NCBI RefSeq assembly: GCF_000010625.1
Contig: NC_010296.1
Coordinates: 5,520,001 to 5,552,000, forward strand
Reading direction: 5' to 3'
Length of the DNA stretch: 32,000 nucleotides
Source: Microcystis aeruginosa NIES-843
Lineage (GTDB): Bacteria > Cyanobacteriota > Cyanobacteriia > Cyanobacteriales > Microcystaceae
Shown here piece by piece: positions 748-28,884 of this stretch (positions within the stretch are counted from its first letter, which is position 1; the number at the start of each line of letters is the position of its first letter). The notes under the pieces were generated by a model. That model had not been told where the DNA came from, ran no database searches, and worked only from the letters and a program-made list of their open reading frames with translations. The position numbers were made by a program, and so were the translations under genes.

Positions 748-801
748 GTGGGGGTAGGGTGTGGGGTGTGGGGTGTGGGGTGTGGGGTGTGGGGTGTGGG
801 G
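748..801. repeat. Heptanucleotide tandem repeat: (TGTGGGG)x6 perfect at 760..801, preceded by degenerate G-rich units
   Basis: Direct reading gives gtggggg taggg then tgtgggg x6. It is intergenic, between the dndC stop (965) and the ddpX start (667). It resembles the short tandem heptamer (STRR-type) repeats of cyanobacteria. Confidence 0.9.
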
Positions 802-894
802 TTTTACCCATTTTCATGTGGTCAATTACCTAATTTTCAGGGAAAAAGTCCAGGGATTTTCCCCCCAATCACTCCAATGGTCGGCACTTTTTGA

Positions 895-964: not shown

Positions 965-2566
965 TTATTCTTCCTCCTCATCGGTTGTAGGGAATTTCAT
1001 ACTGGCCCAAGTTAACTGTTTTTGCGGGTCTTTTTCCGGTTCACTAAAACTCTCCTTGAGTTGTTCTTTCACCTGAGCAATATTGCCACTTTGAGCGGCA
1101 TTCTTTAGATCATAGACATAACGAGCATTTTCGATCGCTTCCTCTTTACTACGAGAACTAGACTCAAAGCATTTTTCTAGGTCTTTGTAAATACCCTTGC
1201 GAGAGATTTTTAGAAAATATTGACGTTCTGTATCGATCAGTTTAGCCAATAATTCTAGGTGCATGGAATCCTCGGCACAGATATCCGCGAGGATATCCCA
1301 TTCTTCACTCCCCAAAAGATTATTATCCGCTCCCGGTCGCGGGTCTTGAAAAGTTTCTCCAGTCACTTGTTTATAAATCTTCGGTAATTGGTCATCAAAT
1401 TCGTGCTTTTCTTCCCTCCAAATCCGGCGAATTTCGCTGAGTTCCTCCGTGGTAATTAGGGTAATATCTTTCATCTCCTCTGGGGCATTAGTACGCACGC
1501 TCTCCTGAGCTTCTAATACCCTTCTCAGCCAATATTCTCGCCATTGTTTAGTATAAGGACCGGGTATGGGTTCGATCGATATTTCTCCATTTAAGTTTCT
1601 TTCAAATAATTGTACTTTCCCAAAGATACGGCGAAAATCCCGTTTTGGTCGGTCATCTTCTATATCTAATTCGTTGCGAAGGTCTAAAAGCGGTTGTAAC
1701 CATTCTTTTTCTTGGTCATTCTGTATCATTGCCTCCATCGATTTATCTTTATTCACCAAAGTACAAACCCAACAACCAAAGCGCGAATCTCCACAGCTAG
1801 GAGTGGAAGTATCTACCACTAGGGGACATTCATTATCCGCAGTCGCTCCTCGATACATTGCTAATAATTCTTTGTTATCTCCTCCCCAGGGATTTTCCCA
1901 CTGCATTAAGTACATCCATACTTCATCAGTACGCCAATCTTCTATGGGAGTATAAACAAGTGAATTAATCAAGTGAGTATGAGGGCTAAGACGCTCCCTT
2001 AATCTCCCTACTTTATGTCTTTCTATGGTTACTGATCGTGCGGAGCTTTCCGTTTTTCGCGCACCTAAAATAACTATTGCCTCACCATTTTCTCTAACAA
2101 CATCTCGAATAAAATAATTAACAGGTTGTATTTTCATCCGTTCAGTACACCAGCGAAATCCTCGTCGTGGTGCGGGATAGCCCTTCCCAATCAAACAAAC
2201 CCAGAAAGTTTCCTTAACAGAAGGATTGATCTGATAAGGTTTAATAGGTATTTGATGATCTTTCGCCGATATTTCCAATTTTTTTATACATTTGTTAACC
2301 CAAGTAGATACAAGAGGATTTTCAACTTGAGTATCTGTTGTAATAACATAAATTGTTTTATGTCTTTTTTCTTCTGGCAAACTAGCGATCGCATTCCAAA
2401 CCAATTGTAAAACTGCTGTGCTATCTTTTCCCCAAGATACACCTATGATCCAGGGAATACTGTCTAGACAATATAACTCTTGTATTTCTTGAGTAATACT
2501 TTTTATATCTTCTACGAACTCCTCTATAGCACGATTAGGAAAAATAGAAGTTGTTTTTTCAAGCAT
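965..2566 (-). CDS. dndC: DNA phosphorothioation sulfurtransferase DndC (PAPS-reductase / PP-loop ATP pyrophosphatase fold)
   Basis: 533 aa with an ATG start. It has a PP-loop-like VSWGKDSTAVLQLVW, then FWVCLIGKGYPAPRRGFRWCTERMKI, ILGARKTESSAR, and the cysteine cluster CPLVVDTSTPSCGDSRFGCWVCTLVNKDKSMEAM. A long helical C-terminal region follows (GPYTKQWREYWLRRVLEAQ...ELSEIRRIW). Length and motif order match my memory of DndC. Confidence 0.88.
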   Translation of the reverse strand: MLEKTTSIFPNRAIEEFVEDIKSITQEIQELYCLDSIPWIIGVSWGKDSTAVLQLVWNAIASLPEEKRHKTIYVITTDTQVENPLVSTWVNKCIKKLEISAKDHQIPIKPYQINPSVKETFWVCLIGKGYPAPRRGFRWCTERMKIQPVNYFIRDVVRENGEAIVILGARKTESSARSVTIERHKVGRLRERLSPHTHLINSLVYTPIEDWRTDEVWMYLMQWENPWGGDNKELLAMYRGATADNECPLVVDTSTPSCGDSRFGCWVCTLVNKDKSMEAMIQNDQEKEWLQPLLDLRNELDIEDDRPKRDFRRIFGKVQLFERNLNGEISIEPIPGPYTKQWREYWLRRVLEAQESVRTNAPEEMKDITLITTEELSEIRRIWREEKHEFDDQLPKIYKQVTGETFQDPRPGADNNLLGSEEWDILADICAEDSMHLELLAKLIDTERQYFLKISRKGIYKDLEKCFESSSRSKEEAIENARYVYDLKNAAQSGNIAQVKEQLKESFSEPEKDPQKQLTWASMKFPTTDEEEE

Positions 2567-2589
2567 AATGTTATCAACAAAAAGATCAA

Positions 2590-3549
2590 CTAATTTCTAA
2601 AAATATTCTGACGATGCCATTGGATAGCTTCAAGTTTTGGATAGTGATTTTCTAGAGTGGGTAATAAAATATTCATACCATGAAAGTCTTTAATGGCTTT
2701 AGCATTAGGAGAAATTTCTTGAAAGTCTTGACTAATCATAATTTTGTATTGATCGTCAATAGTAAATAGTCCTTGATCAAATGCCCAATGATGATTTTTA
2801 CAAAGAGATAAACCATTGTTTATCTGGTTATCATAGAATCTGGCAAAAGGTTTGATATGTGCGCCATCGACAATACTTTGTGTCAAGGAGTGGATTACTT
2901 TAAGACCACAAAAAGAGCATTGATAATCGTATAAATGGACTACTGACTTGCGAAATAACGCATCTCTAACTATAGACTTTCTAAAATAATATTTTGTCTG
3001 TGTTTCTCCTTCATCTAAAACGCTACGATCTAGTTGAGTGTCATCATCTTGTTGTAAGACTTGATTAATTTCTAAAATATCTTCTAATTGCTTTTGACTA
3101 GAAGAAAACCAAGCTTCTATTAGAGTATCAATTAGCTGTCGTCTAGCTTCTGGTTCCCGTAAAAGTTTATACAATTCCTCATCTAAAATCGCATAATCTA
3201 CATCTGCTCTAATTTTGGGAATAGTTTGAGGACGGCCGCCATCATAGCTATCACTAAACTTTAACTTCCAAAATCCGTCATTTTTTAGATGAAAAAACGG
3301 TAAAGCTAACCCACCTTTGAAGGCATCTGGGTTTAAACGCTTCCAATATTTATCAAAAGTATCGATTAATTCATCAGAAATATAGATTTTATTGTCCTGA
3401 ATTTGAGAATCACTAATTAACTCAATTACTGATAATAATAAGATAGGCTTATAAGGTGCTTCACCACTTTGCTTAGACTTATTGACTTTAATTTTAGAAA
3501 ATAAGTCACAATAATATTTTAAATTGCGTAGGGGAAGACTATCGACCAT
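2590..3549 (-). CDS. HNH endonuclease with an N-terminal ScoMcrA-like (putative phosphorothioate/modified-DNA binding) domain
   Basis: 319 aa with an ATG start. The C-terminal half has YDYQCSFCG...DGAHIKPFARFYDNQINNGLSLCKNHHWAFDQGLF, an HNH_2-type nuclease motif. The N-terminal half has APYKPILLLSVIELI and LPFFHLKNDGFWKL, the motif pair I associate with the sulfur-binding domain of ScoMcrA/SprMcrA-type enzymes. Its stop lies 23 nt upstream of the dndC start on the same strand. The CDS call is firm; the SBD assignment is about 0.55. Confidence 0.8.
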   Translation of the reverse strand: MVDSLPLRNLKYYCDLFSKIKVNKSKQSGEAPYKPILLLSVIELISDSQIQDNKIYISDELIDTFDKYWKRLNPDAFKGGLALPFFHLKNDGFWKLKFSDSYDGGRPQTIPKIRADVDYAILDEELYKLLREPEARRQLIDTLIEAWFSSSQKQLEDILEINQVLQQDDDTQLDRSVLDEGETQTKYYFRKSIVRDALFRKSVVHLYDYQCSFCGLKVIHSLTQSIVDGAHIKPFARFYDNQINNGLSLCKNHHWAFDQGLFTIDDQYKIMISQDFQEISPNAKAIKDFHGMNILLPTLENHYPKLEAIQWHRQNIFRN

Positions 3550-3820
3550 AGGGGTGGGAGATATGCGGATAAAAAAAGGAAACTATTACCAGCATACAGA
3601 AAAACATCCCACCGAGAGGAAAAAATACAGAAAGCCTAGAGAGATAGTCATAATAACATCGATCGAGCGCGGCTGACAAGCGATCGCAAAAAAATCGAAC
3701 TTATGTACTATGATCAACCCTTAATGCAACTTTAAAAACCCGCTTCCCACTCCCTCCTATACCCTTTAAAGAGGATTTAGTATCACTTTCCCGGGTTGAG
3801 GGTTTAAGTCCGGTTAGGGA

Positions 3821-4555
3821 TTAAAGAGTAACTCCACCGTCCACGGGTAAAACCACCCCTGTCATATAGGGGTTGATAATCAAACTCAATACTGCTAGGG
3901 CGACTTCTTCGGGTTGCCCTAAATGTTCGACAGGTAGAGCAGAAACCGCCCATTTGCTCAGGTCGGAGCGTTCCGAATCACCTTGACTGGTCCAGATGCT
4001 TGTATCTTCTATTAATCCGGGGGCAACAACGTTAATGCGAATAGGAGCGAGTTCTAGGGCGAGGGCGCGTCCAAATACGGCTACGGCACTATTAGCGGCG
4101 GCTATGACAGAAATTCCGCCCATTTTGGAATATTTGAACATAGTGACGCTGGATGTCAGGGTAATAGAACCGTCCTTGGCCAAAGTTTTCAGGGAGCCAC
4201 GCACTGCTAAAAAGGTTCCCCAGAATTTCTCCATACCTCCCCGGGCCGTTTCTGCGGTCATTTCGGTTAATAAGGCTCGCGGCATATTTCTGTCTCCGAG
4301 AGAGGTGACTACTAAATGGTCAAAGTTGCCAATTTCTGCAAAAAAGGCATTAACAGAATCTTCTTCTAAAAAACTAACAGTTTTGGCTTCAATCTCCCCG
4401 GAAATTAGGGCAACAGCGGCAGCTAATTTCTCTTGAGAAGCATGGGAAAGCACCACTTTTGCCCCCAGGGAGAGCAATTTTTCGGCAATCGCTAGGTCAA
4501 TCCCGGAGCTTGCACCAATAATAACGACTTTTTTACCCGATAAGGAATCAAACAT
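3821..4555 (-). CDS. Short-chain dehydrogenase/reductase family protein, atypical (no canonical YxxxK)
   Basis: Rossmann N-terminus KKVVIIGASSGIDLAIAEKL, then ITLTSSV, NVVAPGLIED and a C-terminal PVDGGVTL. The ATG at 4555 is preceded by GGAGA about 8 nt upstream. The track start at 4570 is a TTG. Confidence 0.8.
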   Translation of the reverse strand: MFDSLSGKKVVIIGASSGIDLAIAEKLLSLGAKVVLSHASQEKLAAAVALISGEIEAKTVSFLEEDSVNAFFAEIGNFDHLVVTSLGDRNMPRALLTEMTAETARGGMEKFWGTFLAVRGSLKTLAKDGSITLTSSVTMFKYSKMGGISVIAAANSAVAVFGRALALELAPIRINVVAPGLIEDTSIWTSQGDSERSDLSKWAVSALPVEHLGQPEEVALAVLSLIINPYMTGVVLPVDGGVTL

Positions 4556-4594
4556 TTTTTTTGTCTCCAAAAATTCAAGAAAAACTTACAACTA

Positions 4595-5395
4595 TTACAG
4601 TATATTGACTGGCTTTTGGGCAGCAACTAACCAATAAGTTATGGCCGAGGAACTTAGCAAATTATCCAGAGGCTTAATGTTTAAATTATAGGTTTCTTCG
4701 TCTAATTTTCCCGATTGCAATTCCTCTGTTAACCAAGACTTAAGATGGCGAAAATGTCTGAACCAGCACTCCTCCGTCACCTCGACAAATTGAACATCTT
4801 TAAACCCTGCCTGTTGATAAAGATTTTGATACTCTGCCCTATCTTTGACCGTGTTTGCTTGGGGAACTGTCCAATCACCTAAAAGTTCTGTTGTGGCAAA
4901 ACTCAGATCTGAGAGAATTAAGGTTCCCCCCGGCTTTAATACTCGCCAAGCTTCTTGCAAGAATTGCCGCCTGGTATTAAAATAAAAAGCCGCTTCTACA
5001 CAAATAATTTGCTCAAAAGAATGATCGGCAAAATCCATCTCTACTGCGTCCATTAACAGAAATTTACCCTCGGGAAAATTCAAGAGACTTCTGGCAATTT
5101 GTGTCGGAGAAATGTTAATCCCCACAATTGCTGTCAATGGATAATATTTGAGAAGATAATGGGTAGTTGCTCCCAAACCACAGCCAACATCAAGAATTGT
5201 TCCCTGTTTGTTGGGAATAAATTCTAAAAGTTTCTCCATCAGAGTAGAGGATGCTTCCTGTTGATCTTGGGTATGGGAGAGCCAATAACCGACATTAAAA
5301 AACTCTCTTTCACCATAAAACTCTCGAATCGAAGGACTACAAATTAAATCATCGAATCTACTAATCCATTCATTTTTATCCATTGTTAAACTCAC
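4595..5395 (-). CDS. Class I SAM-dependent methyltransferase (Methyltransf_11-like)
   Basis: Motif I is GTILDVGCGLGATTHYL, and the motif II/III region is VLKPGGTLILSD. The track start at 5395 is a GTG; an in-frame ATG at 5383 (MDKNEW...) is an alternative start. Confidence 0.85.
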   Translation of the reverse strand: MSLTMDKNEWISRFDDLICSPSIREFYGEREFFNVGYWLSHTQDQQEASSTLMEKLLEFIPNKQGTILDVGCGLGATTHYLLKYYPLTAIVGINISPTQIARSLLNFPEGKFLLMDAVEMDFADHSFEQIICVEAAFYFNTRRQFLQEAWRVLKPGGTLILSDLSFATTELLGDWTVPQANTVKDRAEYQNLYQQAGFKDVQFVEVTEECWFRHFRHLKSWLTEELQSGKLDEETYNLNIKPLDNLLSSSAITYWLVAAQKPVNIL

Positions 5396-6970: not shown

Positions 6971-9900
6971 TCAAATCTCAAGGCAAACTTTTAACTCTTC
7001 GGCTAAAATCTGGACATGGGGTTCCACCATAATCGAGACATGATTTCCTAGGACGAAATGAATCTCAACTGGCTCTGTAGAAAATTCACTCCAGCCTAAA
7101 GAGGAATCCTCGCAATCTCCAGCTATTAAATCTTTATTTGGATCATCAGCTAATTCCTCCCTGGCCCGTATAATCGTAATTTTACCAGGATAAATCTGTT
7201 TAGGGAGATAATCAATCAGACATAGACAGCTAGTTTTATAGGCTTGGACAATTTTTTCAAGCTGCCTAGTTTCCGCATTGGGAGGAAGCATATTAGCCAG
7301 TTTAAAAAAGTTTAAGGCGTATTTTAATTGTTCCTCCACTGTTAAGAGTTGAAGAGTTTCATAGGAAATATCGATGGTTTTATCTAAATAAACTTCGATA
7401 CCTTTGCTGACTTCAGCTAACCATCGCGCATGATCCCAATTAATATAATCAAGCAAAATTTGTTTGTCTTTATAAGTGGGTGCTGAAGAATCAATGATTG
7501 CTAGTAATGCCACTTGTTGACCCTGATTAACCAACTGTTGAGCCATTTCAAAAGCCACATTACCACCGTAGGAATGTCCTCCCAAAAAGTAGGGGCCTTG
7601 GGGTTGTAAATCTTGCATTGCTTGAAGATAAATACTGGCTATATCCTCAATGCGAGTGATTTCTCCAAACTGTTGATAGAGATCATTTTCAAAACTGTAG
7701 AAAGGTTGATCTTTTCCTAAACAACGTCCTAAATGGTAAAAATAAAATGGTCGTCCCCCGGCGCCTGGAACACAGAAGAAAGGAGGCTTTGAACCCTGGG
7801 GTTGAATGGGAACCAAACAAGACTGGTTAGAGGAATCTGCATCGGTTTGGATAATGGTCGCTAACTGTTCAATAGTTGGGTTTTGAAATATTGTAGTTAC
7901 GGCAATTTCTTTGCCTAACTGTTCTTTAATTTGGGTGATTAAATAAGGAGCTAAAAGGGAATGACCACCGAGGTCAAAAAAGTTATCATGCACGCTAATT
8001 TTGTCAATCTTTAGCACTTTTGACCAGATTTGCACGAGGTTTAATTCTAACTGATTACGCGCTTCAATAAATCTGTCTGAATCACTGGTGTTACTGGGAG
8101 CTTTTAACGCACGGCGATCAATTTTTCCGTTAGCTGTTAAAGGGAAAAACTCCAGCAGCACAAAAGCACCAGGAACCATATAACCGGGCAATTTATGGCT
8201 AAGAAATTGACGCAAATCGCCACTTGTTAGCTTTACTCCTAGCTTAGGTACAATATAGGCAACTAACTGTTTTTCCCCTGGATTGTCTTCACGAACAATC
8301 ACACAGGAAGACTGTACCGCCTGATTTTGACTAAGTACAGCCTCAATTTCTCCCAATTCAATACGGAAGCCGCGAATTTTTACTTGATTGTCAATCCGTC
8401 CTACATATTCAATATTACCATCGGGTAAATAACGGGCCAAGTCTCCCGTTTTATATAATTTTGACGGCTCATTGCCCCCCTTATTAAGGGGGGTTGGGGG
8501 GATCACTTCATCCTTCTCAAAAGGATTAGGAATAAATTTTTCTTGGGTTAATTCGGGACGGTTAAGATAACCTTTGGCTAATCCCATACCACCAATATGT
8601 AATTCTCCTACTACACCAATCGGGACAGGTTGGAGATTTTTATCCAGCAAATAGATTTGGGTATTGGCAATCGCTTTACCAATGGGAATAGTTGTGGCTG
8701 TAGAAGCTATGTTTTCCACTAAATACCAGGAAGAAAACGTTGTATTTTCCGTTGGCCCATAGACATGAAGCAACCGTTGTGGCGCACCTTTTTCTAGTAC
8801 CTCTTGTACCCATTTTGGTTCAACTGCTTCACCCCCAAATAGTAAGCATCGTAAGCTACTAAAAGCTTGCGGAACTAAATTGGCTAACTGATTAAAAAGT
8901 GCTGTGGTTAAAAATAAGACACTAATCTGATTTTCCTTTAAGCTTAGTGCCAATTCTTGGGGTGAGAGCAAAACTGATTTAGCGATAATAACAATCTTAG
9001 CACCGTTAAGTAAAGCCCCCCAAATTTCAAAAGTAGCGGCATCAAAAGCAATATTAGACGCTTGCACAACCCGGTCATCAGGAGTAAACTGGATGTAATT
9101 AGTATTTAATACCAGTCGATTAACTGCTTGATGAGTGACGATAACACCCTTGGGTATTCCTGTAGAACCAGAAGTATAAATAACGTAGGCTAAATTATCC
9201 GCAGAAACTGTGCTGTTCAGATTCTCCAGACTTGCTTGATTAATTTGTTGCCAATCTTTATCTAGACAGATAACAATAGCCTGATGATTTGGCAAGGAAT
9301 TCTGTAAAGATTCGCAGGTTAATATTATTTTAACCTGGGTATCTTGGAGCATAAAGCTAATGCGTTCTTGGGGATAATCTGGGTCAATAGGAACATAAGC
9401 TCCACCGACTTTAAGAATAGCCAATAATCCCACAATCATGTCTAAGGAACGCTCTAGACAAATCCCCACTAATTCATCTGGTTTTACTCCTAATTTTTGC
9501 AGGTAATGAGCTAATTGATTGGCTCGACAATTTAATTCATTGTAGGTTAATTGTTGCTCTGAACATACCACTGCTACCGCGTCGGGTGTGCGTTTTACCT
9601 GTTCTTCAAATAATTGATGAATACATTGATCAGAGGGATAATCTGTGTGAGTTTCGTTCCACAATGATAACAATTGATAACGTTCTTCATCACTTAACAT
9701 CGATAACTGAAAAATTCCCATATTGGGATTAGCTGCAATCGCAGTTAAGAGATTCTGAAAATGTTGCCACATTTGGTTAATAGTGGGGGCAGCAAACAAA
9801 TCCGTACTATAACACCAAACCGCTTCTAAACGATCAGAAACTTCCCAAAAATTTACCTCTAAATCAAATCGCGCTTTAAGCTCAACAGATAAAGGCAAAC

Positions 9901-11227
9901 TCTCCATCTTTAAGCCAGATAAACTGGCCTCAGATTGGGGAGTATTTTGCAGAGAAAACATCACCTGTATCAAAGGATTGTGACTTAAATCTCGGTTTAA
10001 TTGTAATTTTTCTACTAACATTTCAAAAGGCAAATCTTGATGAGCATAAGCTGATAAAGTTGTTTGCTTTACTCGTTGTAATAACTCCAGAAAACTCGGA
10101 TTTCCCGACATATCACCCCTTAAAGCCAAAGTATTGGCAAAAAAGCCCATTAATTTCTCAATTGCCGAACTATTACGATTAGCTATCGGAGAACCCACCA
10201 AAACATCTAATTGACCACTATAACGAGAAATTAGGACAAAAAAAGCCGCCAGTAAAGTCATAAATAGCGTTGCTCCTGACTCCTGACTTAACCTTTTGAG
10301 GCGTTGCGTTAAGTCTTGATTCAGTCGAAAAACCTGCCCATCACCCCGGAAACTAGGAATTGGAGGACGGGGATAATCCGTTGGCAATTCTAAAATAGTA
10401 GGTGCATCTTGTAACTGTTTTTGCCAGTAATTAAGTTGACGCTCCAAAACTTCACCGGTGAGCCATTGACGTTGCCATACGGCAAAATCGGCGTATTGAA
10501 TCGATAATTTAGCGAGAGGGGAAGGCAAACCCTGGACAAAGGCCGCATAAAGTTGAGATAATTCACCAAAGAAGATGCTCAAAGACCAACCATCGTAAAT
10601 AATATGGTGCATCTTCAACAGCAATACATACTCTTGGGAACTGAGTTTAAGTAACTTAAATTGGACTAATGATTCCTTGGCTAGATTAAAGGGTTTTAAG
10701 GAGAAAGCAATCGCTATTTCTTGCAGATGTTCTGTTTGTTCATTCTTTGATAAATTTTGTAAATCTTCCAGGGGTAAACTGACGGGTGAAGGGGGAGCAA
10801 TGCGCTGAATTGGTTGCCCTTCTACCATGGTAAAAGTGGTTCTTAAAATTTCGTGACGGCGAATCAGTTCGCTGAGACTTTGTTCTAAAGCCAACAGATT
10901 GAGGTTTCCTTCTAACCGCAAAGCGTCCAACAGATTATAGGAATGACTATCGGGAGAAAGTTGCTGCAGAAACCAGAGTCGTTGTTGAGCAAAAGAGAGG
11001 GGTAAATCCTGATCCCGTGACACGGGAATAATCTCTAAATCAACAGTATTAGTTGGGATTTTTGCCGCTCTCAAAAAGTCCAAAATTTCAGGTTTTTTGG
11101 CGGCGATTTCTTCTTTAATTTCTGGGGTCATAACCCCTTTGGGAGCCTGAAAACGAAGTTTTTCGCCTTCCAGCCATAGTTTAATCTCTAAACCCTTCAA
11201 ATACGCTAAAAAATCTCCTACTTTCAC
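6971..11227 (-). CDS. NRPS termination module (module 7): docking-C-A-T-TE, Ile/Val-like
   Basis: 1418 aa. The GTG start is preceded by GGGAGG. C domain: LSFAQQRLWFL, MHHIIYDGWS. A domain: LAYVIYTSGSTGIPKG, GELHIGGMGLAKGYL, YKTGDLARY, GRIDNQVKIRGFRIELGEIE, NGKIDRRAL. T domain: FFDLGGHSLL. TE domain: GGHSYGG. Hand-derived specificity signature is DAFFLGVTFK (Ile/Val type). Confidence 0.95.
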   Translation of the reverse strand: MKVGDFLAYLKGLEIKLWLEGEKLRFQAPKGVMTPEIKEEIAAKKPEILDFLRAAKIPTNTVDLEIIPVSRDQDLPLSFAQQRLWFLQQLSPDSHSYNLLDALRLEGNLNLLALEQSLSELIRRHEILRTTFTMVEGQPIQRIAPPSPVSLPLEDLQNLSKNEQTEHLQEIAIAFSLKPFNLAKESLVQFKLLKLSSQEYVLLLKMHHIIYDGWSLSIFFGELSQLYAAFVQGLPSPLAKLSIQYADFAVWQRQWLTGEVLERQLNYWQKQLQDAPTILELPTDYPRPPIPSFRGDGQVFRLNQDLTQRLKRLSQESGATLFMTLLAAFFVLISRYSGQLDVLVGSPIANRNSSAIEKLMGFFANTLALRGDMSGNPSFLELLQRVKQTTLSAYAHQDLPFEMLVEKLQLNRDLSHNPLIQVMFSLQNTPQSEASLSGLKMESLPLSVELKARFDLEVNFWEVSDRLEAVWCYSTDLFAAPTINQMWQHFQNLLTAIAANPNMGIFQLSMLSDEERYQLLSLWNETHTDYPSDQCIHQLFEEQVKRTPDAVAVVCSEQQLTYNELNCRANQLAHYLQKLGVKPDELVGICLERSLDMIVGLLAILKVGGAYVPIDPDYPQERISFMLQDTQVKIILTCESLQNSLPNHQAIVICLDKDWQQINQASLENLNSTVSADNLAYVIYTSGSTGIPKGVIVTHQAVNRLVLNTNYIQFTPDDRVVQASNIAFDAATFEIWGALLNGAKIVIIAKSVLLSPQELALSLKENQISVLFLTTALFNQLANLVPQAFSSLRCLLFGGEAVEPKWVQEVLEKGAPQRLLHVYGPTENTTFSSWYLVENIASTATTIPIGKAIANTQIYLLDKNLQPVPIGVVGELHIGGMGLAKGYLNRPELTQEKFIPNPFEKDEVIPPTPLNKGGNEPSKLYKTGDLARYLPDGNIEYVGRIDNQVKIRGFRIELGEIEAVLSQNQAVQSSCVIVREDNPGEKQLVAYIVPKLGVKLTSGDLRQFLSHKLPGYMVPGAFVLLEFFPLTANGKIDRRALKAPSNTSDSDRFIEARNQLELNLVQIWSKVLKIDKISVHDNFFDLGGHSLLAPYLITQIKEQLGKEIAVTTIFQNPTIEQLATIIQTDADSSNQSCLVPIQPQGSKPPFFCVPGAGGRPFYFYHLGRCLGKDQPFYSFENDLYQQFGEITRIEDIASIYLQAMQDLQPQGPYFLGGHSYGGNVAFEMAQQLVNQGQQVALLAIIDSSAPTYKDKQILLDYINWDHARWLAEVSKGIEVYLDKTIDISYETLQLLTVEEQLKYALNFFKLANMLPPNAETRQLEKIVQAYKTSCLCLIDYLPKQIYPGKITIIRAREELADDPNKDLIAGDCEDSSLGWSEFSTEPVEIHFVLGNHVSIMVEPHVQILAEELKVCLEI
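6974..7816 (-). other. Thioesterase (TE) domain of the termination module
   Basis: The last 281 aa begin LVPIQPQGSKPPFFCVPGAGG. The GxSxG nucleophile motif is GGHSYGG, with the Ser codon at 7573..7571. The fold pattern looks alpha/beta-hydrolase-like. Confidence 0.85.
8443..8523 (-). repeat. 81-nt in-frame palindrome-bearing block, copy in module 7 (encodes ...FEKDEVIPPTPLNKGGNEPSKLYKTGD)
   Basis: ctcccgttttatataattttgacggctcattgCCCCCCttattaaGGGGGGttggggggatcacttcatccttctcaaaag. The palindrome is at 8475..8493. Confidence 0.9.
11063..11227 (-). other. TubC-type N-terminal NRPS docking domain
   Basis: MKVGDFLAYLKGLEIKLWLEGEKLRFQAPKGVMTPEIKEEIAAKKPEILDFL matches the remembered TubC_N pattern (hLWxEGxxLRxxAPKGxhTPEh...K.ehL). 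The upstream protein ends in an acidic tail, ESLEDYEDGEL. Confidence 0.7.
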
Positions 11228-11393
11228 TTACCAATTGCCTCCCAAAGTTGTTGTTAAATTAGCTCTAAATCACGAAGTTTGCCCTGAGGATGTAAAAGTA
11301 CATCAGATTGCCATTGACTAGGATCAATATTTGTCCTTTGCCGTTTTAACTGTCTTGCTAAACTATTGATATCAGCTAAAACTTTAACTGTTT

Positions 11394-14300
11394 TTATAAT
11401 TCACCATCCTCATAATCTTCCAAGCTTTCAGTCATAGCTGTTTGTCCCGGTGCAACGGTAAGAACTTCAATGATTTGGGCTAAATTAGCGATAGTTGGGT
11501 ATTCCAGCAGATTTTGTAAAGACAATTCCACCGAGAAAAGATCGCGGGAACGGGAAATAACCTGAGTCGCTAACAAAGAATGTCCTCCCAATTCAAAGAA
11601 ATTATCCTTAATTCCAATACGTTCGACCCCCAAAACTTCACTCCAAATTTGAGACATTTGAGTTTCAATCGGGGTACGAGGTGCGAGAAATCCCGTAGCT
11701 AAATTGCGTGTAGCTGTATCGGGTGTAGGCAAAGCCTGCCGATCTACTTTACCATTAGGAGTCAAAGGTAGGGTATTAAGCAAAACAAAAGCCTGGGGAA
11801 CCATATAACTAGGTAGCTTTTGTTGGACAAATTCCCGCACCTGTGGTATCAGCTTCTGGACTAATTTACCATATAAAGGATTATTCGTATAATCAGTCCA
11901 GGATTTGGGAATAATCGTCTCATCATCCCAAAAATTGGGGTATGGTTGTTGATCAACTTTACTTATTATCGGTTCTAAGATGGCATTCTGGCGACAGAAA
12001 ACCACATCGAAAGAACCATCTTGACTACCTTCCCACCAACTGAGATGAACAGTGTAACCTAACTGTTCTCCCAGTTGCCACATTTGCTCAGGATTAATCC
12101 CTATACCGCTATTTTTTGCTAACAATTGCCGCAATTCTCCCACCGTTGTTACCCCGGGAGAATTTTCTAAACAGTCTAAAATTTGTAGTGCCTTTTGTAA
12201 TCGTTGATTGGGTACATCTCTGATGCCTAAATATTCTGGTTGTTCCAGTTTTAGTTTATCTTGTAGTTGCCCTAAAGAAAACCGATCCCGCTGCCAATTT
12301 AGCCAAGGAATTGTCGTTTTTTGCCCATTAGTATCCAGATGTAAAGTAACATCATAGCGGAATTGGGTTAACTCATTGTCAGCCTGACCCCGTTTCGGGG
12401 CAATTTCTACCCAAGAAATTCGCGGAAAGCGTTGTTTAAGCGCAATAAAGAACTGAGGTGCAATTAACAATTCTTCTTCGGTAGCTACACTTTGATTCAC
12501 CTGTTTTTGCCATTCTTCAAGGGTTTTATTAGCTTCAGCACGAGCTAACTGTACCGCGGCATGGTAAGGCTCTAGTAAGGACAAACTACGGATATCACCT
12601 AGGAAAATCTTACCCTGATCCGCAATCGCCTTGACTGCTCCTGCGATAACTTGTAATAGATAATCGACACTAGGGAAATACTGAACCACAGAGTTAATTA
12701 CTACTCGATCAAAAGTAGCTTGGGGAATGCCGGTAAAATCATCGGCTGTTCGGTGTAATAATCTTACTTTGCCCTCTAAACCCTCAATTGTGCTACATAA
12801 ATGTTCGAGGTTATTAATAGTAGCAGCGGAATAATCGGCTCCCCAATATTCCTGACAATGTTTCGCCACACGGAATAGCAATAATCCACTTCCGCAACCA
12901 ATTTCTAACACTCGTTGCGGTGGTTGATTTCCTAAAATTCGGCTCACTGTCTGATCAACCCATTCCTGCATTTCTGCTGCGGGAATAGCTTGTCGCGTAT
13001 AACTACTATTCCAACCACTAATATTAAAAGTGGGGTCATCGGTTTGAGGTTGGGGTTTACTGTAGGATTCTTCGTAAATCTTTTGCCAATCACTAACATA
13101 TTCACTCTGCCATTGAGCAAGCTGTTCGGGCAATACTTGACCCTTGAGAGCCGGAACTAAGTAGGCTACCAAATTAGTATTAAGCTGATCATGATCATGA
13201 TCACTTGCCTGATCAGCGCGAGCCATCACAACCGCTTCTTGTACTAGGGGATGTTGGCTCAAAACTGCTTCAATTTCCCCTAATTCAAGGCGGAAACCCC
13301 TTACTTTAACCTGATTGTCAATTCGTCCCAGATATTCAATTTTTCCATCAGGTAAATAACGAGCTAAATCTCCCGTTTTGTATAATTTTGACGGCTGCTC
13401 TCCCCCCTTATCAAGGGGGGTTAGGGGGGGATCAAGGGAGACAAACGGGTTAGAGATAAATTTCTCTGCTGTCAATTCTGGGCGATTCAAATAACCTCTG
13501 GCTACCCCTGCTCCTCCGATATGTAATTCCCCGGGTACACCGATAGGAACCGGTTGTAAATGGGAGTCTAAAATATAAACCTGCACATGAGGAATTGGCC
13601 GACCAATAGTTATTTTTGTGTCAAAAGGCGTACATTTAGCTACCGTTGCACAAACACTTCCTTCGGTGGGTCCATAACCATTAAAGAAATTTCGTCCCTG
13701 GGACCATTTTTTCACCAATTCAGGAGAACAAGCTTCCCCGGCGACAATAATAGTTTGCAGAGAGGAAAGATTTTCCCAAGACAGAACCGCTAAAGCTGAT
13801 GGCGGTAGAGTAATATGAGTAATCTTATTCTCCCGTAATTGCTTGATTAAGGGTAAACCGGGCATTAAATTTTCTTTACTTGCCAAATAAAGTGTCGCTC
13901 CCGCTCCCAAAGCCATTAAAACTTCTGAAATACAGGCATCAAAACTAAAAGAAGCAAATTGAAGCACTCGACTCTGAGAAGACACAGCAAAAGTCTGAAT
14001 TTGCGCCAGAGCTAAGTTACATAACCCTTGATGTTCAACCATCACCCCTTTAGGTTTACCCGTAGAACCAGAAGTATAAATCACATTAGCTAAATTAGAA
14101 GCTGTTACCTTCCCCGTCAAATTATCCCAGTTCATTGGTTTAATTTCTTGCCAAATTTCAGCTAAAAAGATGGTTTGGCCTCGATGATTTGGGAGTTTAT
14201 CAATCAGTGAACTTTGGGTTAGTAATAAGGGTACTTGACTATCCTCTAACATCAATTGTAGGCGTTCTTGAGGATATTCCGGGTCAAGGGGTAGATAGGC

Positions 14301-17300
14301 AGCACCGGCTTTAAGGATGCCTATTAATGCCACAATCATGTCTAAAGAGCGCTCTACACACAAACCGACTATTACCTCGGTTTCTAAGCCTAAAGAGCGT
14401 AAATAGTGAGCTAGTTGATTGGCCTGACTATTTAATTCTGCATAGGTCAACTGTTGATTTTCAAAGACTACTGCTACTGCATCAGGGGTACGCGCTGCTT
14501 GTTCCTCAATTAATTGATGAATACACTTGTTATAGGAGTAATCAGCTTTTGTCTCATTCCAACCCTCTAATAGTTGATACTCTTCCTCTGGGTTTAATAA
14601 GGGTAGTGAAGCTACTGATTGACGGGGATTTTCCACAATTGCCGCCAACAAAGTCTTAAAATGAGTCATCATACGGACAATGGTTTCAGCATCAAATAAA
14701 TCCCTGTTATAAGAGCAAAAACCGCCCAATCCTTCGGCTGCATCCCAGAGGTAAACTTCTAAGTCAACCCTAACTGAATCAAGTCCCGATGGTATCTCCT
14801 CAATGTTTACTCCGGGTAAATCCCAGGGAGAACTAGGAGCATTCTGAAGGGCAAAAACTATCTGTGTTAAAGGATTACGATCTAAATGACGCTCAATTTG
14901 TAATTTTTCGACTAACATCTCGAAGGGTAAATCTTGATGGTCGTAAGCGTCTTGAGTAGTTTGTCTGACCTGCGCAAGAAAATCCTCAAAGGTCGGGTCT
15001 TGAGATAAATCAAATCTTAACACTAAACTATTGACAAAAAAGCCGATTAACCCTTCAATTTCGGTGCGGTTACGGTTAGCAATTGGTGAACCAATTACCA
15101 CATCTGTTTGTTGACTATAACGAGATAGTAACACAGCAAAACCCGCTAGTAATGTCATAAAGAGAGTGCTACCGGACTCTTGACTAAGTTTTTTCAGTTG
15201 TTGCGTTAGTTGACTATCTAGTTGCAGTCGCTCCGTCCCTCCGCGAAAACTTTGGATTGCTGGCCGGGGACGGTCTGTGGGAAGTTGGTGTAGTAGGGGA
15301 ACCCCGGTTAATTGTTGCTTCCAGTAGCTTAATTGACGGTCTAATACTTCATTAGTTAACCACTGACGCTGCCACAGGGCAAAGTCAGCATACTGTATCG
15401 ATAAAGTAGGTAAATCTGCTTTTGTCCCGGTGCAGAAACTTCGATAATAGACTGATAATTCGTCGATTAAAACACCTAATGACCAACCATCTGCCGCAAT
15501 ATGGTGAATGGCTAATAATAGTACATATTCCTCTGTCTTGACTTGCCATAATTTGACTCGTAATACTGAACCTGATTCGAGATCAAAGGGTTCGGATGCT
15601 GCTGCTAATAACAGGTTTTTTACCTGTTGCTCAGAATGACTGAGGTTTTGCAGATTGACAACTGGTAAGGTGAAAGTTACATTAGGATCGATCGCTTGTA
15701 TTGGTTGGTTATCTTTGAGTTTAAATTGAGTCCGTAGGGGTTCATGGCGTTGAATAATTGCCTGGAAAGCTTTTTCTAAGGCTTTAACATTGAGATTTCC
15801 CTGCAAACGCATCGTTAAATCAATAGTATAAGCCCCACTTTCTCCTTCTAATTGATTCACAAACCAGAGACGTTCCTGGGCCCAGGATAGGGGAATATCA
15901 TCCTCCCGATTAACGGGGACAATTGATGGTAGCTTTAACCCTAAACCTGTTTGCAGTTCTTTTAAAATTACCGCACTTAACTGAGCAATGGTTGGAGATT
16001 CAAACAGATAACGCAAGGGAACAACAATCTCAAAGGTTTCCTGTAATCGAGAAATAACTTGAGTTGCCAACAGAGAATGTCCACCTAATTCAAAGAAATT
16101 ATCCTCAATACTGACTCGTTTTAATTTCAGTACGTCACCCCAAATCTGCGCCATTTTTTCTTCAATGGGGTTACGGGGAGCTATATATTCACCTTGGCTC
16201 TGTAAATCGGGAACGGGTAAAGCGCGGCGGTCTATTTTGCCATTGGGAGTTAAGGGGAAAGCATCAAGACGAATAAACGCAGTAGGAACCATATAGTCGG
16301 GTAATTTTGCTCGCAAAAATTGCCGTATTTCGTTAATTGTCAGGTTGATTTCGGGTTGCGGTACAACGTAAGCAACTAAGCGTTTATCCCCTAGATTATC
16401 TTCACGAACAATCACACAAGAAGACTGTACCGCCTCATTTTGGTTGAGTAACGATTCAATTTCTCCTAATTCAATACGGAAGCCGCGAAGTTTTACTTGA
16501 TTGTCAATGCGTCCTAAATATTCGATTTTACCATCGGGTAAATAACGGGCTAAGTCTCCCGTTTTATATAATTTTGACGGCTCATTGCCCCCCTTATTAA
16601 GGGGGGTTGGGGGGATCACTTCATCCTTCTCAAAAGGATTAGGAATAAATTTTTCTTGGGTTAATTCGGGACGATTGAGATAACCCCGCGCTAATCCCAT
16701 ACCACCAATATGTAATTCTCCCGGAACACCAATCGGGACAGGTTGTAAATGGGAGTCTAAGATATAAATTTGGGTGTTAGCAATGGGGCGACCAATAGTT
16801 ACTTTCAGGGTTTCATCTGTCCATTTTTCTACCGTGGCACAAACGCTGGTTTCTGTCGGTCCATAAGCATTAAAGAAATTTCTCCCTCTAGCCCATTGTT
16901 TGATCAATTCTTCTGAACAAGCTTCTCCCCCTACAATAATAGTTTGTAACTCTGGGATTTCTTCTAGGGGCAAAGCCGCTAAGGCTGAGGGGGGTAAAGT
17001 AACATGAGTAATACCATAATCTTTTAATCGCCCCATTAATGGCAACCCAGGCATTAAAGCGTCTTTTGTGTCTAAATAAAGGGTTGCACCCGATCCTATG
17101 GCCATGATAATTTCCCAGATAGAAGCATCAAAATTGAGGGAAGCAAACTGGAGAAGGCGAGAGTTTGACTGTAAGTTAAAGGTTTTAATTTGCGCTGTAG
17201 CTAGGTTAAATAGTCCCCGATGTTCCACCATTACCCCTTTAGGTTTTCCGGTAGAACCAGAGGTATAAATGAGATTAGCTAAATTATTGGCTGTTACTAC

Positions 17301-20300
17301 TCCTGTTAGGTTATCTTGGCTGTTTTGGTTAATTTCTTCTGTGAATCTGTCTAACAAGATTAGCGGCGCTTGATGTTCGGGTAGTTTATCGATTAATCCC
17401 TCTTGAGTGAGCAATAATGACAGTTGAGCATCAGCGATGGCAAATTGTAGCCGTTCACTGGGATAATCTGGGTCGAGAGGTAGATATGCACCACCCGCTT
17501 TTAATATCCCCAATAACCCCACAATCATCTCTAAGGAACGCTCAAGGGAAATACCGACTAAAGTATCAGCTTTTACGCCTAATTTCCGCAGATAATGAGC
17601 TAATTGATTAGCACGACAATTTAACTCATTGTAGGTTAATTGTTGCTGGGAACAGACCACTCCTACCGCGTCGGGTGTGCGTTTTACCTGTTCCTCAAAT
17701 AACTGATGAATACACTTATACTCAGGATAGTCAACTTGAGTATTATTCCACTCAATTAATAACTGATTAGTCTCGCTTTCTGTCAGTAAGGGTAATTGGG
17801 AAATCCGCGCTTGAGGATTGGCCGCAATTCCCCCTAATAAGTTGAGAAAATGCCCTGATAATCGCTCAATAGTGCTACTTTCAAACAAATCAGTATTATA
17901 TTCCCAGACACCTTTTAAGCCATCATCGGTGTTAACCATAGCTAAGGTTAAATCAAACTTAGCTGTGGTATTTTCCGGTGGCAAATCTGTCACCGTTAAT
18001 CCCGTCATTGCAATCTCAGACTTAGGTGTATTTTGCAGGACAAAAGCGACGTGAAATAGGGGAGTATGGCTCAAATCCCGTTCCGGTTGCAACGCTTCGA
18101 CTAACATTTCAAAGGGTAAGTCTTGATGCGCGTAAGCATCCATTGTCACTTCCCGAACACGGGTTAATAACTGACTAAAACTCGGATTGTCTGATAAATC
18201 CGTCCGCATCACTAAAGTATTAACAAAGAAGCCGATTAAACCCTCAATTTCACCGCGATTACGATTAGCGATGGGAGTTCCTACTAAAATATCACTTGAC
18301 CCTGTATAACGATACAGTAAAGCATCAAAAGCAGCCAACAGCGTCATAAATAATGTCACCCCTTGTTGGCGACTCAATTCAGTCAAAGCTTGGCTAAGTT
18401 TGGGGGAAAGGGAAAATTCTTGCTGAGTACCGACAAAGCTTTGCACCGCAGGTCGAGGGTGGTCTGTGGGAAGAGATAATAAAGAAGGTGCATTTGCTAG
18501 TTGATTTTGCCAGTAATTTAATTGACTTTGTAGGACATCCCCTTGTAACCATTGTTTTTGCCAAACTGCAAAATCTGCATACTGAATCGGTAAGGGAGCT
18601 AAATTTGCGGGATGATTTTGAGTGTAAGCATTATATAAGCTGGTCAGTTCGTGAATAAATACTTCTATTGACCAACCATCACTAATAATGTGGTGCATAC
18701 ACACTAATAAGAGATGTTCCGTCTCCGATAGCACCACTAAAGTGATTCTGATTAAGGATTCTTTGGCTAAATTAAAGGGTTGAGTGGCTTGTTTTTGCTT
18801 TAATTGCTGTGTTTTTTCTTCTTGCTCCTGGATGGGTAAATCTTGTAAATCAACGACCGATATTGTCTCCCTTGTTGTTTGAATAACCTGAGTCGGTTGT
18901 CCATCAATCGTGACAAAATTAGTCCGTAATACTTCATGGCGATTACAGATTTCTCGTAAACTTTGTTCTAAGGCCTTTTGATTGAGGTTGCCTCGGAAAT
19001 GCAACACCATCGGTATATTGTATAAAGCGCTATTTGGTTGCAATTTATCTAAAAACCATAAACGCTGTTGAGCAAAAGATAGAGGTAGTTCTGTATCCTT
19101 AGTTCTCGGTAAAATCGGGGGTACTGTTAGCGTGAGATTTTGCTGCTGTAATTGTCCAATGAGATGCGCTAATTCGGCTACCGTAGCTGCACCAAATAAA
19201 CTCCGCAAAGGTAGTTCTATTTTAAATAAACTCCGAATCCGAGAAACTAATTGAGTTGCGAGGAGAGAATGGCCGCCAATTTCAAAGAAATTATCATAAA
19301 TTCCCACTTGATCTATTTTGAGTATTTCTGTCCAAATTTGCACCAACATCTCTTCAATTCCATTGCGTGGTGCTACATATTGATCCCGGCGATTTCCTAT
19401 CTTATCTGGTGCGGGTAAAGCGCGACGATCTACCTTACGATTAGTAGTAAGGGGTAAAGATTCCAGAAAAACAAAAGCTTGAGGAACCATATACAAAGGC
19501 AATTTACTGGACAGAAACTGACGCAGTTCACTAATCATCGGTATCCGTTCGTAATGAGCTACTATGTAGGCGACTAAATATTTATCCCCCGGAGTATCTT
19601 CCCGAATAATCACACAAGATGTTTGTACATCAATATTTTGGTTAAGTACCGCTTCAATTTCTCCTAACTCAATACGGAATCCGCGAATTTTAACCTGATT
19701 GTCAATCCGGCCAAAACATTCAATATTACCATCAGGTAAATAACGCGCTAAATCTCCCGTTTTATACAAACGATTGAACGGTGAATGAGCAAAGGGATTG
19801 TTAATAAATTTTTCAGCAGTCAATTCGGGCCGATTCAGATAACCCCGCGCTAAACGAACACCGCATAGATGCAATTCTCCCTTAACTCCAATGGGTACAG
19901 GTTGCAGATTTTGATCTAGTATGTATGCTTTTGTATTAGCAATGGGACGACCAATCAGCACTGAATTGATTTTTTCTGACTGATAATCTAGCAAGTCATG
20001 AACTATGGCGGTTACAGACGCTTCTGTGGGGCCATATACATTAATACATTGAACCCGTTTTCCGACCATTTGTCGCCAAATATTGACGGTTTCTGGTAAC
20101 ACTGCATCCCCTCCCACGGCGACGACCCGCAGACTGGATGGTACAGTAGCTAATGATTGGGAAACGGCGAGCGCCCATTCATGCCAATAGGCAGGGGTAA
20201 TATTTAAAACGGTGAGGCTTTCTTGTTCGATAAAATCGGCAAAATCAGTCAAAGTTGGGAACATTTGCCCTGGTCTTAAGACCACTGTGCCACCTTTTAA

Positions 20301-28500: not shown

Positions 28501-28882
28501 CTTCAGACAATTCTAGGGATTTTTGCTGATCACTCTCCAAAAAAACTGCTAATTCCTGTTCTTGCTGTTGTGCGGTTAAATGTTGCCAATCAAATGTAGC
28601 GACTCTCACAGTTACTTGTCGATACACTACTTGTACAGGTTGGCTCAATGATTCCCAAATAAAAGCTGTACGGAAAACGACATACTTTTCTACTAATCTT
28701 TGCCAAGCTTGCTCGAATATTGTTGTATCGACATTGCCCTTTAAATTACAACTAAATTGGACGAAATATACATCTGAATCTGGCTCATACAAGCTATGAA
28801 ACAACATCCCCTGTTGCATCGGCGATAGGGGATAAATATCGGCTACATTTTGTCTATTTGTGTTATTCATCTGGGAGTTCAT
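25565..28882 (-). CDS. NRPS module 2 (C-A-T), Thr-specific
   Basis: 1105 aa. The C domain has the N-terminus YPLSPMQQGMLFH and SHHLLLDGWS. The A domain signature DFWNIGMVHK is the textbook Thr code, read from AFDFSVWEM / TILNQTP / VIFGGE / NMYGITETTVH. T domain: FFELGGHSLLATK. The ATG at 28882 lies 2 nt after the upstream stop. Confidence 0.95.
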   Translation of the reverse strand: MNSQMNNTNRQNVADIYPLSPMQQGMLFHSLYEPDSDVYFVQFSCNLKGNVDTTIFEQAWQRLVEKYVVFRTAFIWESLSQPVQVVYRQVTVRVATFDWQHLTAQQQEQELAVFLESDQQKSLELSEAPLMRLNLIKLDKNTYQFVWSSHHLLLDGWSLSLVIKDFLKIYQEISQNQISTDQPVVSYRQYIAWLQQQEQKPAEEFWQQKLQGFTAPTPLVIERSANSKNSNVYKKQQIQFPASTTATCQSFVRKNRLTLNNLVQATWGLLLSRYSQETDIVFGATVSGRETSIAGIEAMVGLFINTLPMRIQVKPDTSALTLLKDLQAQLVESNQYSYSSLAEIQTWSEIPRGASLFDSIVVFENYPVDATAVLGNDSFCLENIQVSQQTNYPLTLIALPGDQLQVRISYDTNRFDDGTITRLLGHFQTLLEGMVANPEARVSQLPLLTEFEKNQLLIDGHNPQVDYPVTKCLHQLFEEQVKRTPEAVAVVYSDQQLTYNELNNRANHLAHYLQSLGVKPDQLVGICLERSLEMIVGLLGILKAGGAYVPLDPEYPIERLSFMLEDAQLSVLLTQQKLGETLPQHQAQIIYLDTDWEKIAENSHSNPENTVTPDNLAYVIYTSGSTGKPKGVLVNHSNVVRLFAATDAWYNFNSQDVWSLFHSYAFDFSVWEMWGALLYGGRLVVVPYLITRSPEAFYQLLCQEKVTILNQTPTAFRQLIQAEESLKGSFPLSRGDRSSTTDNDLSLRLVIFGGEALEINSLQSWFQRHGDQCPQLVNMYGITETTVHVTYRPLSMTDLDSTASVIGRPIPDLQVYLLDQYLQLVPVGVPGEMYVGGAGVTKGYLNRPELTKERFISSPFEKDEVIPPTPLNKGGNEPSKLYKTGDLARYLPKGELEYLGRIDNQVKIRGFRIELGEIEALLASHPQIWETVVIVRDDATGDKRLVAYIVPQSEKTITINEIRQFLKAKLPSYMIPNAFVILDALPLTANGKIDSRALPPPESSSEPSEKYVAPRNPIEDILVTVWSEVLKVEKVGINDNFFELGGHSLLATKLVAQIRDRLKVELPLRQLFNSATLAELAQGIEQLKQEKSAPIVPAILPRKRK
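26227..26307 (-). repeat. 81-nt block, copy in module 2
   Basis: Identical string to 8443..8523. The palindrome is at 26259..26277. Confidence 0.9.
26674..26692 (+). repeat. Partial, oppositely oriented copy of the GC-hairpin motif in the A4-A5 region of module 2
   Basis: The plus strand reads gatCCCCCCttgataaGGG. This matches the coding-strand form of the module 6 copy (gatccccccctaaCCCCCCttgataaGGGGGG) minus one C-run. It encodes PLSRGD within the extra-long loop SLKGSFPLSRGDRSSTTDNDLSLRL. Confidence 0.5.
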
Positions 28883-28884
28883 CG

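Follow-up and report, generated by a model that had tools for sequence, protein, structure and literature searches.

The nuclease-dndC pair

The window, that is, the whole 32,000-nucleotide stretch of Microcystis aeruginosa NIES-843 DNA analysed here, carries near its left end two minus-strand open reading frames (ORFs): a gene for an HNH nuclease with a sulfur-binding domain (SBD) at its N-terminus, and dndC, which encodes a subunit of the Dnd DNA modification complex. An earlier note on this DNA had described the pair as a minimal or novel phosphorothioate (PT) cassette, in which a solitary dndC was translationally linked to a ScoMcrA-like nuclease. It had set out three readings: a decayed remnant of a dnd island, a system completed by dnd genes acting from elsewhere, and a two-gene system in which the HNH protein takes the place of DndD. 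The features at the locus are as follows.

3650..3679, minus strand: promoter-like site, TTGTCA, 18-nt spacer, TATTAT, extended TG (consensus scan, 10/12 matches, weak)
2590..3549, minus strand: SBD-HNH nuclease gene (ORF, 319 amino acids, 37.40 kDa computed)
3100..3522, minus strand: sulfur-binding domain, residues about 10-150 (phmmer, Foldseek, AlphaFold model)
2755..2919, minus strand: HNH_2 catalytic domain, residues 211-265 (Pfam PF13391)
2567..2589, minus strand: spacer from the HNH stop codon to the dndC start codon, 23 nt, read directly: TTGATCTTTTTGTTGATAACATT
965..2566, minus strand: dndC (ORF, 533 amino acids), encoding the sulfurtransferase subunit, with PP-loop and [4Fe-4S] cluster, of the Dnd complex
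2420..2437, minus strand: PP-loop of DndC, residues 44-49, SWGKDS (alignment of 70 DndCs)
1763..1828, minus strand: cysteine cluster of DndC, C247, C258, C265 and C268, ECPLVVDTSTPSCGDSRFGCWVC (same alignment)
850..868, minus strand: terminator-like hairpin followed by a T-run (consensus scan, weak)

The nuclease gene lies 5' of dndC on the same strand, with 23 nt between them and zero overlap, and both ORFs stand where the earlier note had placed them. The two genes are probably co-transcribed as a shared operon, the spacing being no proof of translational coupling. A promoter-like site lies about 100 nt 5' of the HNH start and a hairpin about 100 nt 3' of the dndC stop; matches in both scans are consensus-level and no commoner than in shuffled sequence, promoter-like sites even being fewer in the region than in shuffled sequence. 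Behind dndC come a heptamer repeat and a dipeptidase gene, as had been described, and dndD and dndE are absent from the window. The AT-richness previously judged by eye is confirmed by base composition: GC content is 32.3% in the HNH gene and 36.2% in the 5' third of dndC, against 41.6% in the rest of dndC and 40.8% in the window, and GC at third codon positions is 23% against 33-36%.

Domain structure of the nuclease

The nuclease is identical to BAG05816.1/WP_012268164.1 of M. aeruginosa. The only Pfam domain found in it is HNH_2 (E=1.5e-11), and most motif residues, namely C211, C214, D228, G229, H231, N245, H253 and H254, are invariant in an alignment of 19 sequences (A1); the HNH of TagI (6ghs) is also matched (E=1.2e-6). 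The N-terminal 150 or so residues match the SBD of Hga from Hahella ganghwensis (PDB 8h0l; phmmer E=2.1e-16). In the AlphaFold model residues 10-150 have block-mean pLDDT values mostly of 80-90, with dips near 21-30 and 71-80, the linker and the HNH part being modelled more weakly. Foldseek returned 8h0l with a target-normalised TM-score of 0.80 and an rmsd of 2.6 Å, and the SBD of SprMcrA (7ccd) with a probability of 1.0. A precomputed match to PF26340 is marked as weak.

Hga, the best match in both sequence and structure, shares with the window protein a Leu-Pro-type cavity and conserved Lys and His residues, but carries a PD-(D/E)XK nuclease where the latter has HNH. The sulfur cavity of Hga is lined by H25, K26, L75, P76 and H79 (PMC10602919), with which the predicted cavity residues Y33, K34, L83, P84 and H87 align. 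P84 and H87 are invariant across the nuclease family, whereas the position of Hga H25 is taken by Tyr33 in the window protein and by Tyr or Asn across the cyanobacterial family. The two N-terminal motifs on which the earlier note had relied lie in the two segments that make up the Hga cavity, and its assignment of an SBD is borne out by the phmmer match, the fold and the cavity mapping. Its comparison with ScoMcrA stands for the combination of SBD and HNH and fails for the SBD-SRA-HNH architecture: no SRA/SAD domain was found between SBD and HNH in the Pfam search, and residues 155-206 model as a helical linker. Both ScoMcrA and the proteins built of a winged helix-turn-helix (wHTH), SAD and HNH nonetheless resemble the window nuclease in fusing an SBD/wHTH reader to HNH beside Dnd genes; they differ in possessing the SRA/SAD domain, which is lacking in the window protein of only 319 amino acids.

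At the cavity pair of residues 33-34, the window protein has Y-K while many homologs from Nostoc, Kamptonema and Coleofasciculus have N-K or N-Q (A1). The equivalent change in ScoMcrA, R117Q, weakened PT binding (PMC6224610). To judge by these residues, sulfur affinity may differ across the SBD-HNH family.

Characterised relatives

The architecture of SBD, helical linker and HNH_2 is that of the Mae9806I/EcoWI/SprMcrA class, of which Mae9806I (WP_004160581.1) comes from the same genus and was described as an SBD-HNH enzyme of 37.4 kDa (Lutz et al., 2020; PMC7461809). It is active with Mn2+ only, has low specific activity, shows a 2-4-fold preference for GpsAAC/GpsTTC DNA and cuts 8-10 nt from the mark (PMC7461809). 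The window nuclease is very probably its ortholog: the published mass (PMC7461809 supplement) compares with the 37.40 kDa computed here, and the DndC of strain PCC 9806 (WP_004160586.1), whose accession lies five from that of Mae9806I, falls in the same 90% cluster as the window DndC.

DndC

The window DndC is identical to BAG05815.1/WP_012268163.1, and UniRef names NIES-843 for BAG05815.1. It scores 688.1 bits against TIGR03183 (cutoff 290.4), spanning profile positions 2-446 of 447, and 659 bits against the PADLOC DndC model. The claim of a full-length DndC thus holds from end to end; among the profile searches that the earlier note had proposed, HNH_2 is matched in the nuclease and the TIGRFAM cutoff is passed by DndC. 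The Fe-S cysteine cluster is likewise intact: C140, C247, C258, C265 and C268 are each conserved in 70/70 aligned cyanobacterial DndCs.

The PP-loop reads SWGKDS, with W45, and not SGGKDS; a glycine occupies this position in 61 of the 64 non-Microcystis DndCs. The S-x-G form is tolerated by 3'-phosphoadenosine 5'-phosphosulfate (PAPS) reductases. The motif GVSWGKDS also occurs in a Phormidium DndC (L043), whose locus holds dndB, dndD and dndE. That the substitution is an inactivating change is considered unlikely on account of this variant in a complete locus, together with the strong purifying selection described below.

Linkage of the nuclease to dndC across cyanobacteria

Neighbourhoods were scanned in one genome per species, and close homologs of the nuclease turned up at 80 loci, almost all of them cyanobacterial. 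The flanking ORFs were clustered, and clusters were named with NCBIfam models whose curated cutoffs were exceeded in every case. In 79 of these 80 loci, which cover Nostocales, Oscillatoriales and Chroococcales, dndC lies downstream on the same strand, either directly adjacent or with one or two opposite-strand genes between; at the single locus lacking it the contig ends. The usual core order is dndB, SBD-HNH, dndC, dndD, dndE. A typical locus comprises dnd_restrict_1 (TIGR04095), a DndD-like paralog, dnd_assoc_4, DGQHR on the opposite strand, DndB, SBD-HNH, DndC, DndD, DndE and a dnd-related methyltransferase. DndD follows DndC in 50 of the 56 loci that have at least 6 kb of downstream sequence, a count including one locus (L024) at which abutting genes had led the script to miss dndD. 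A complete cluster with DndD and DndE is present in L098, the closest relative outside Microcystis (HNH 67% identical).

The pairing of the nuclease with dndC is therefore the cyanobacterial norm and not a local oddity, and the notion of a minimal or novel cassette finds no support, dndC following the nuclease in nearly every locus. The earlier note had itself named orthologous pairs embedded in dnd loci elsewhere, with truncation here, as evidence that would count against it, and outside Microcystis this is largely what is seen. Since the pair is embedded in dnd loci elsewhere, the Microcystis arrangement represents a derived, fragmented version of the cluster. Varied and incomplete configurations of cyanobacterial dnd loci have been reported (Jian et al., 2021; PMC8569181).

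This linkage sets the subfamily apart. SBD-HNH enzymes in general are found near dnd genes in 3.6% of cases or less (PMC7461809), which applies to EcoWI and most of the class, whereas the subfamily of the window lies almost always within a dnd locus. Among homologs of Mae9806I, 72 of 279 were near dnd genes and were treated as "outliers", for which inactive partners or differing specificity were suggested (PMC7461809). Genes for wHTH(SBD)+SAD+HNH proteins have been recorded in the Dnd loci of 698 taxa and proposed as alternative restriction components (Aravind lab, 2024; PMC10853773).

Further genes accompany the pair in filamentous cyanobacteria. Most of these (L026, L037, L047 and many others) have the TIGR04095 helicase-nuclease, the DndD-like paralog and dnd_assoc_4 upstream. 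The paralog shares only about 23% identity with true DndD. In many of these cyanobacteria a TIGR04096 methyltransferase is encoded downstream as well. Neither the TIGR04095 module nor the TIGR04096 methyltransferase was found near the Microcystis pair. One typical cyanobacterial dnd locus (L025, JBLNEP010000036.1), with HNH 59% and DndC 66% identical to those of the window, belongs to a metagenome-assembled genome (MAG) labelled Actinomycetota and is probably a mis-binned cyanobacterial contig.

dndD and dndE at a second Microcystis locus

Canonical dndBCDE clusters hold orthologous DndC, DndD and DndE side by side, while in Microcystis the genes are split into an HNH-dndC unit and a dndD-dndE unit, with no dndB within 10 kb. 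In the four Microcystis loci with long flanks, the fifth being on a short contig, DndB, DndD and DndE were found neither in the roughly 10 kb upstream of the pair nor in the 8.3 kb downstream, and no contiguous dndBCDE operon was seen in the Microcystis loci. These five are the only loci in the scan that lack nearby both DndD and the upstream DndD-like paralog.

A first search for DndD with a Cyanosarcina query gave no Microcystis protein among the best 120 and was uninformative. The DndD of the closest non-Microcystis relative, used as query, led at 62% identity to a cluster (P0377) of 461 members, every named one of which is from Microcystis, and in the surroundings of these genes dndE follows immediately after dndD at a conserved, syntenic Microcystis locus. 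Both products pass their models, DndD with 654 bits against TIGR03185 (cutoff 246) and DndE with 137 bits against TIGR03184 (cutoff 72). One exact DndE sequence (P0409) bears the accession BAG03499.1, in the series of the window's BAG05815 and BAG05816 and about 2300 numbers away. In MAG W13-11, an HNH protein (NCR40292.1) and a DndE (NCR39299.1) are both listed. A search for both halves in one assembly through the GCA accessions of the exact proteins gave differing assemblies (GCA_020245865.1 and GCA_020246445.1). The halves are at least several kilobases apart, and probably about 2300 genes apart by accession numbering. A separate Microcystis locus for dndD-dndE agrees with the report of Frangeul et al. 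(2008), in which DndC, DndD and DndE stand on three different contigs of M. aeruginosa PCC 7806 (PMC2442094, additional file 9), and with a later remark in the literature on split dnd genes in toxic Microcystis. The percentages in the former table are ambiguous, as identity or coverage, and the table is not relied on alone.

The surroundings of this second locus (L100, L104, L115-L124) vary. Its left flank is conserved, with Wzy_C and a thiamine pyrophosphate (TPP) enzyme gene, except that L104 differs there too and has a VCPO-like gene. The right flank takes two forms: one has genes for a haem-oxygenase-like/cupin protein, a methyltransferase, TauD and a nitroreductase, and the other, seen in some strains, genes for a B12-binding radical-SAM protein and a flavin mononucleotide (FMN) oxidoreductase.

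The reading in which dndD and dndE act from elsewhere is verified, in this first half, by the separate cassette. The strict two-gene alternative, an autonomous system with the HNH protein in place of DndD and DndE, draws on the lack of dndD and dndE within about 8-10 kb of the Microcystis pair, but loses its premise with the discovery of bona fide dndD-dndE elsewhere in the genus. The 461 members of the DndD cluster also exceed the two main HNH clusters combined (158+139), which is a rough proxy for strain coverage, and all other lineages have DndD or the DndD-like paralog with the pair. Such a replacement is accordingly very improbable. A minimal two-gene phosphorothioation cassette, if true, would have been a new kind of system; what the evidence shows is a fragmented but complete Dnd system.

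Selection and allelic diversity

Purifying selection is evident in both genes. For dndC, dN/dS is 0.044 between close alleles, 0.22 in the 5' third and 0.07 in the remaining C-terminal two thirds; for the HNH gene it is 0.27 between the two Microcystis alleles. With values this low in both, the HNH gene and dndC are maintained by selection. A decaying remnant of a dnd island would fit a locus truncated relative to the canonical cluster and its AT-rich composition, but it is hardly credible in the face of ORFs that many strains keep intact in both of two deeply diverged alleles, of dN/dS values between 0.04 and 0.27 (0.04-0.07 for dndC), and of the retention of all conserved cysteines and 228 of 249 conserved columns. 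This first of the three original readings is thus contradicted.

In Microcystis two deeply diverged alleles of the pair occupy the same chromosomal neighbourhood, the HNH proteins being 61-63% and the DndCs 81% identical. In a comparison of the alleles with L020 and L019, positions 1962..3520 of the window, which cover the SBD, the linker, the HNH C-terminus and the first 200 or so dndC codons, show 52-73% DNA identity. Within this stretch the HNH core forms an island (2726..2925) of 89-96% identity between alleles. Over the other two thirds of dndC, identity is 92-100%. The divergent stretch is the low-GC stretch in both alleles. One protein (P0008) is a natural recombinant, joining the SBD of one allele to the C-terminus of the other; the modules are therefore reshuffled by recombination inside the conserved HNH core. 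Strict co-variation of SBD and dndC 5' alleles, considered as a sign of matched specificity, is weakened by this recombinant.

The pair as probable part of a split Dnd system

The window most plausibly contains, with a probability of roughly 0.8, half of a Dnd phosphorothioation system that is split in M. aeruginosa NIES-843, namely the unit formed by the SBD-HNH nuclease and dndC. By inference from the family, DndC, its obligatory partners DndD and DndE, and an IscS/NifS-type cysteine desulfurase would together replace a non-bridging phosphate oxygen by sulfur at specific sites. The SBD of the nuclease, a winged helix with the Hga-type hydrophobic cavity (Y33, K34, L83, P84, H87), would hold the Rp sulfur, after which the C-terminal HNH would cleave some 8-10 nt from the mark, as reported for Mae9806I. 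Because operon linkage with the writer is near-universal, the most likely role of the nuclease is that of a PT-reading effector arm in cyanobacterial Dnd, held in genetic linkage with a compatible writer, and not that of a type IV enzyme that happens to be its neighbour. Functional coupling of reader nuclease and writer is favoured over a type IV enzyme that is simply linked.

There are precedents for a reader nuclease living alongside a writer. SspE and DndI are nucleases encoded with PT writers, and they use a hydrophobic patch to read host PT and so regulate their cutting. Their folds are unrelated to that of the window nuclease, however, consisting of a DUF262/ParB-like NTPase and DUF1524, whereas the window protein is without an NTPase domain.

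Several points weigh against this interpretation. Characterised members of the family cut PT-DNA, which is hard to square with a resident writer; the paradox of a writer paired with a PT-attacking nuclease, raised in the earlier note, is genuine and acknowledged in the literature (Lutz et al., 2020). The whole of the PT-DNA_restrict model (NF045808) is matched by the nuclease, with a score of 144.8 bits that lies below the cutoff of 180. For NIES-843 itself, dndE is placed by the accession series and dndD by its adjacency to dndE in other strains, and the phosphorothioation of Microcystis DNA is a prediction from genes. The probable orthology with Mae9806I rests on WP numbering, the shared DndC cluster and the predicted mass. 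In many filamentous cyanobacteria, furthermore, the upstream TIGR04095 module is a rival candidate for the restriction arm, so that the HNH protein need not be one.

The nuclease might instead be an ordinary type IV PT-dependent enzyme, directed against a foreign PT motif and leaving the host motif unread, in which case its linkage to dndC would reflect co-inheritance and no mechanistic coupling. This is a possible though less probable explanation, and it corresponds to the non-overlapping specificity that the earlier note had coupled with dnd genes acting from elsewhere. The characterised SBD-HNH enzymes, Mae9806I included, prefer cutting PT-DNA, the sulfur cavity and HNH motif of the window protein are intact, and differing specificity is one of the explanations given by Lutz et al. 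for dnd-linked cases. Set against these is the position upstream of dndC, in the same orientation, in 79/80 loci, compared with 3.6% or less generally, and no reason is known why type IV enzymes that stand alone should require linkage of this kind.

An improbable alternative, near to the two-gene reading, gives the nuclease a part in modification itself, as a maintenance or targeting factor that reads hemi-modified sites after replication and nicks or marks the unmodified strand, allowing DndCDE to renew the modification. Its gene does lie inside the modification operon, between dndB and dndC, and in Microcystis it remained with dndC when the cluster split. DndE has been reported as a nicked-DNA binder and the Ssp system has a dedicated nickase, which also count for a maintenance role. 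Against it, Streptomyces, Salmonella and E. coli have Dnd systems that, as cloned dndBCDE operons, achieve modification with no such protein (PMC7461809). Nor is a biochemical precedent known for a maintenance role, and from the recombinant protein (P0008) it is clear that the alleles of the SBD reassort with those of the dndC 5' part.

It can also be suggested, tentatively, that in cyanobacteria the SBD-HNH protein belongs integrally to Dnd and co-evolves with it, and is no type IV enzyme but a PT reader with a nuclease licensed, positioned or restrained by host PT. It could then serve as the restriction arm in lineages without DndFGH, or as a maintenance nickase guiding DndCDE to hemi-modified sites, and its staying with dndC at the break-up of the cluster would indicate a direct partnership of reader and DndC.

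Much of the background is already known: the genes are annotated, a probable ortholog is characterised, and both Dnd-linked SBD-HNH proteins and dispersed Microcystis dnd genes have been described. The value that remains lies in the placement of a sulfur-reading nuclease directly upstream of the gene for a core writer subunit, dndC, in 79 of 80 loci, and in the survival of the pair through the Microcystis split. The literature has handled such pairs as outliers, or through proposals only. At issue is what keeps a sulfur-reading nuclease conserved within the dnd operons of cyanobacteria. Microcystis and its relatives offer a natural test bed for a PT reader nuclease living with a PT writer, which bears on self/non-self discrimination when only part of a genome's sites are modified.

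Neighbouring genes

Between dndC and the dipeptidase gene, at 748..802, the heptamer GTGGGGT (read as ACCCCAC on the gene strand) occurs eight times in tandem. The dipeptidase gene, of the Peptidase_M15/VanX type, stands 3' of this repeat and leaves the window at its left end; in other aligned Microcystis loci the spacer between dndC and this gene is different or absent.

Strains with the allele of the window have, directly upstream of the HNH gene, genes for a short-chain dehydrogenase/reductase (SDR, 249 amino acids) and an S-adenosylmethionine (SAM)-dependent methyltransferase (266 amino acids) at 3821..5395 on the minus strand. In strains with the other allele, XisH/XisI and psbA-like genes stand in their place, and the SDR and methyltransferase genes are therefore not part of the dnd unit.

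The minus strand at 6971..31842 is taken up by four large ORFs of 1418, 4724, 1105 and 985 amino acids. In a near-identical locus, the 1418-amino-acid ORF has the domains of a nonribosomal peptide synthetase (NRPS), namely TubC_N docking, condensation, adenylation, peptidyl carrier protein (PCP) and thioesterase. No ORF of microviridin-cluster size lies between the NRPS and methyltransferase genes in the window; in BLCC-F210 and other related strains, a microviridin-type cluster with two MvdD ATP-grasp genes and an Inhibitor_I10 precursor gene is present between them.

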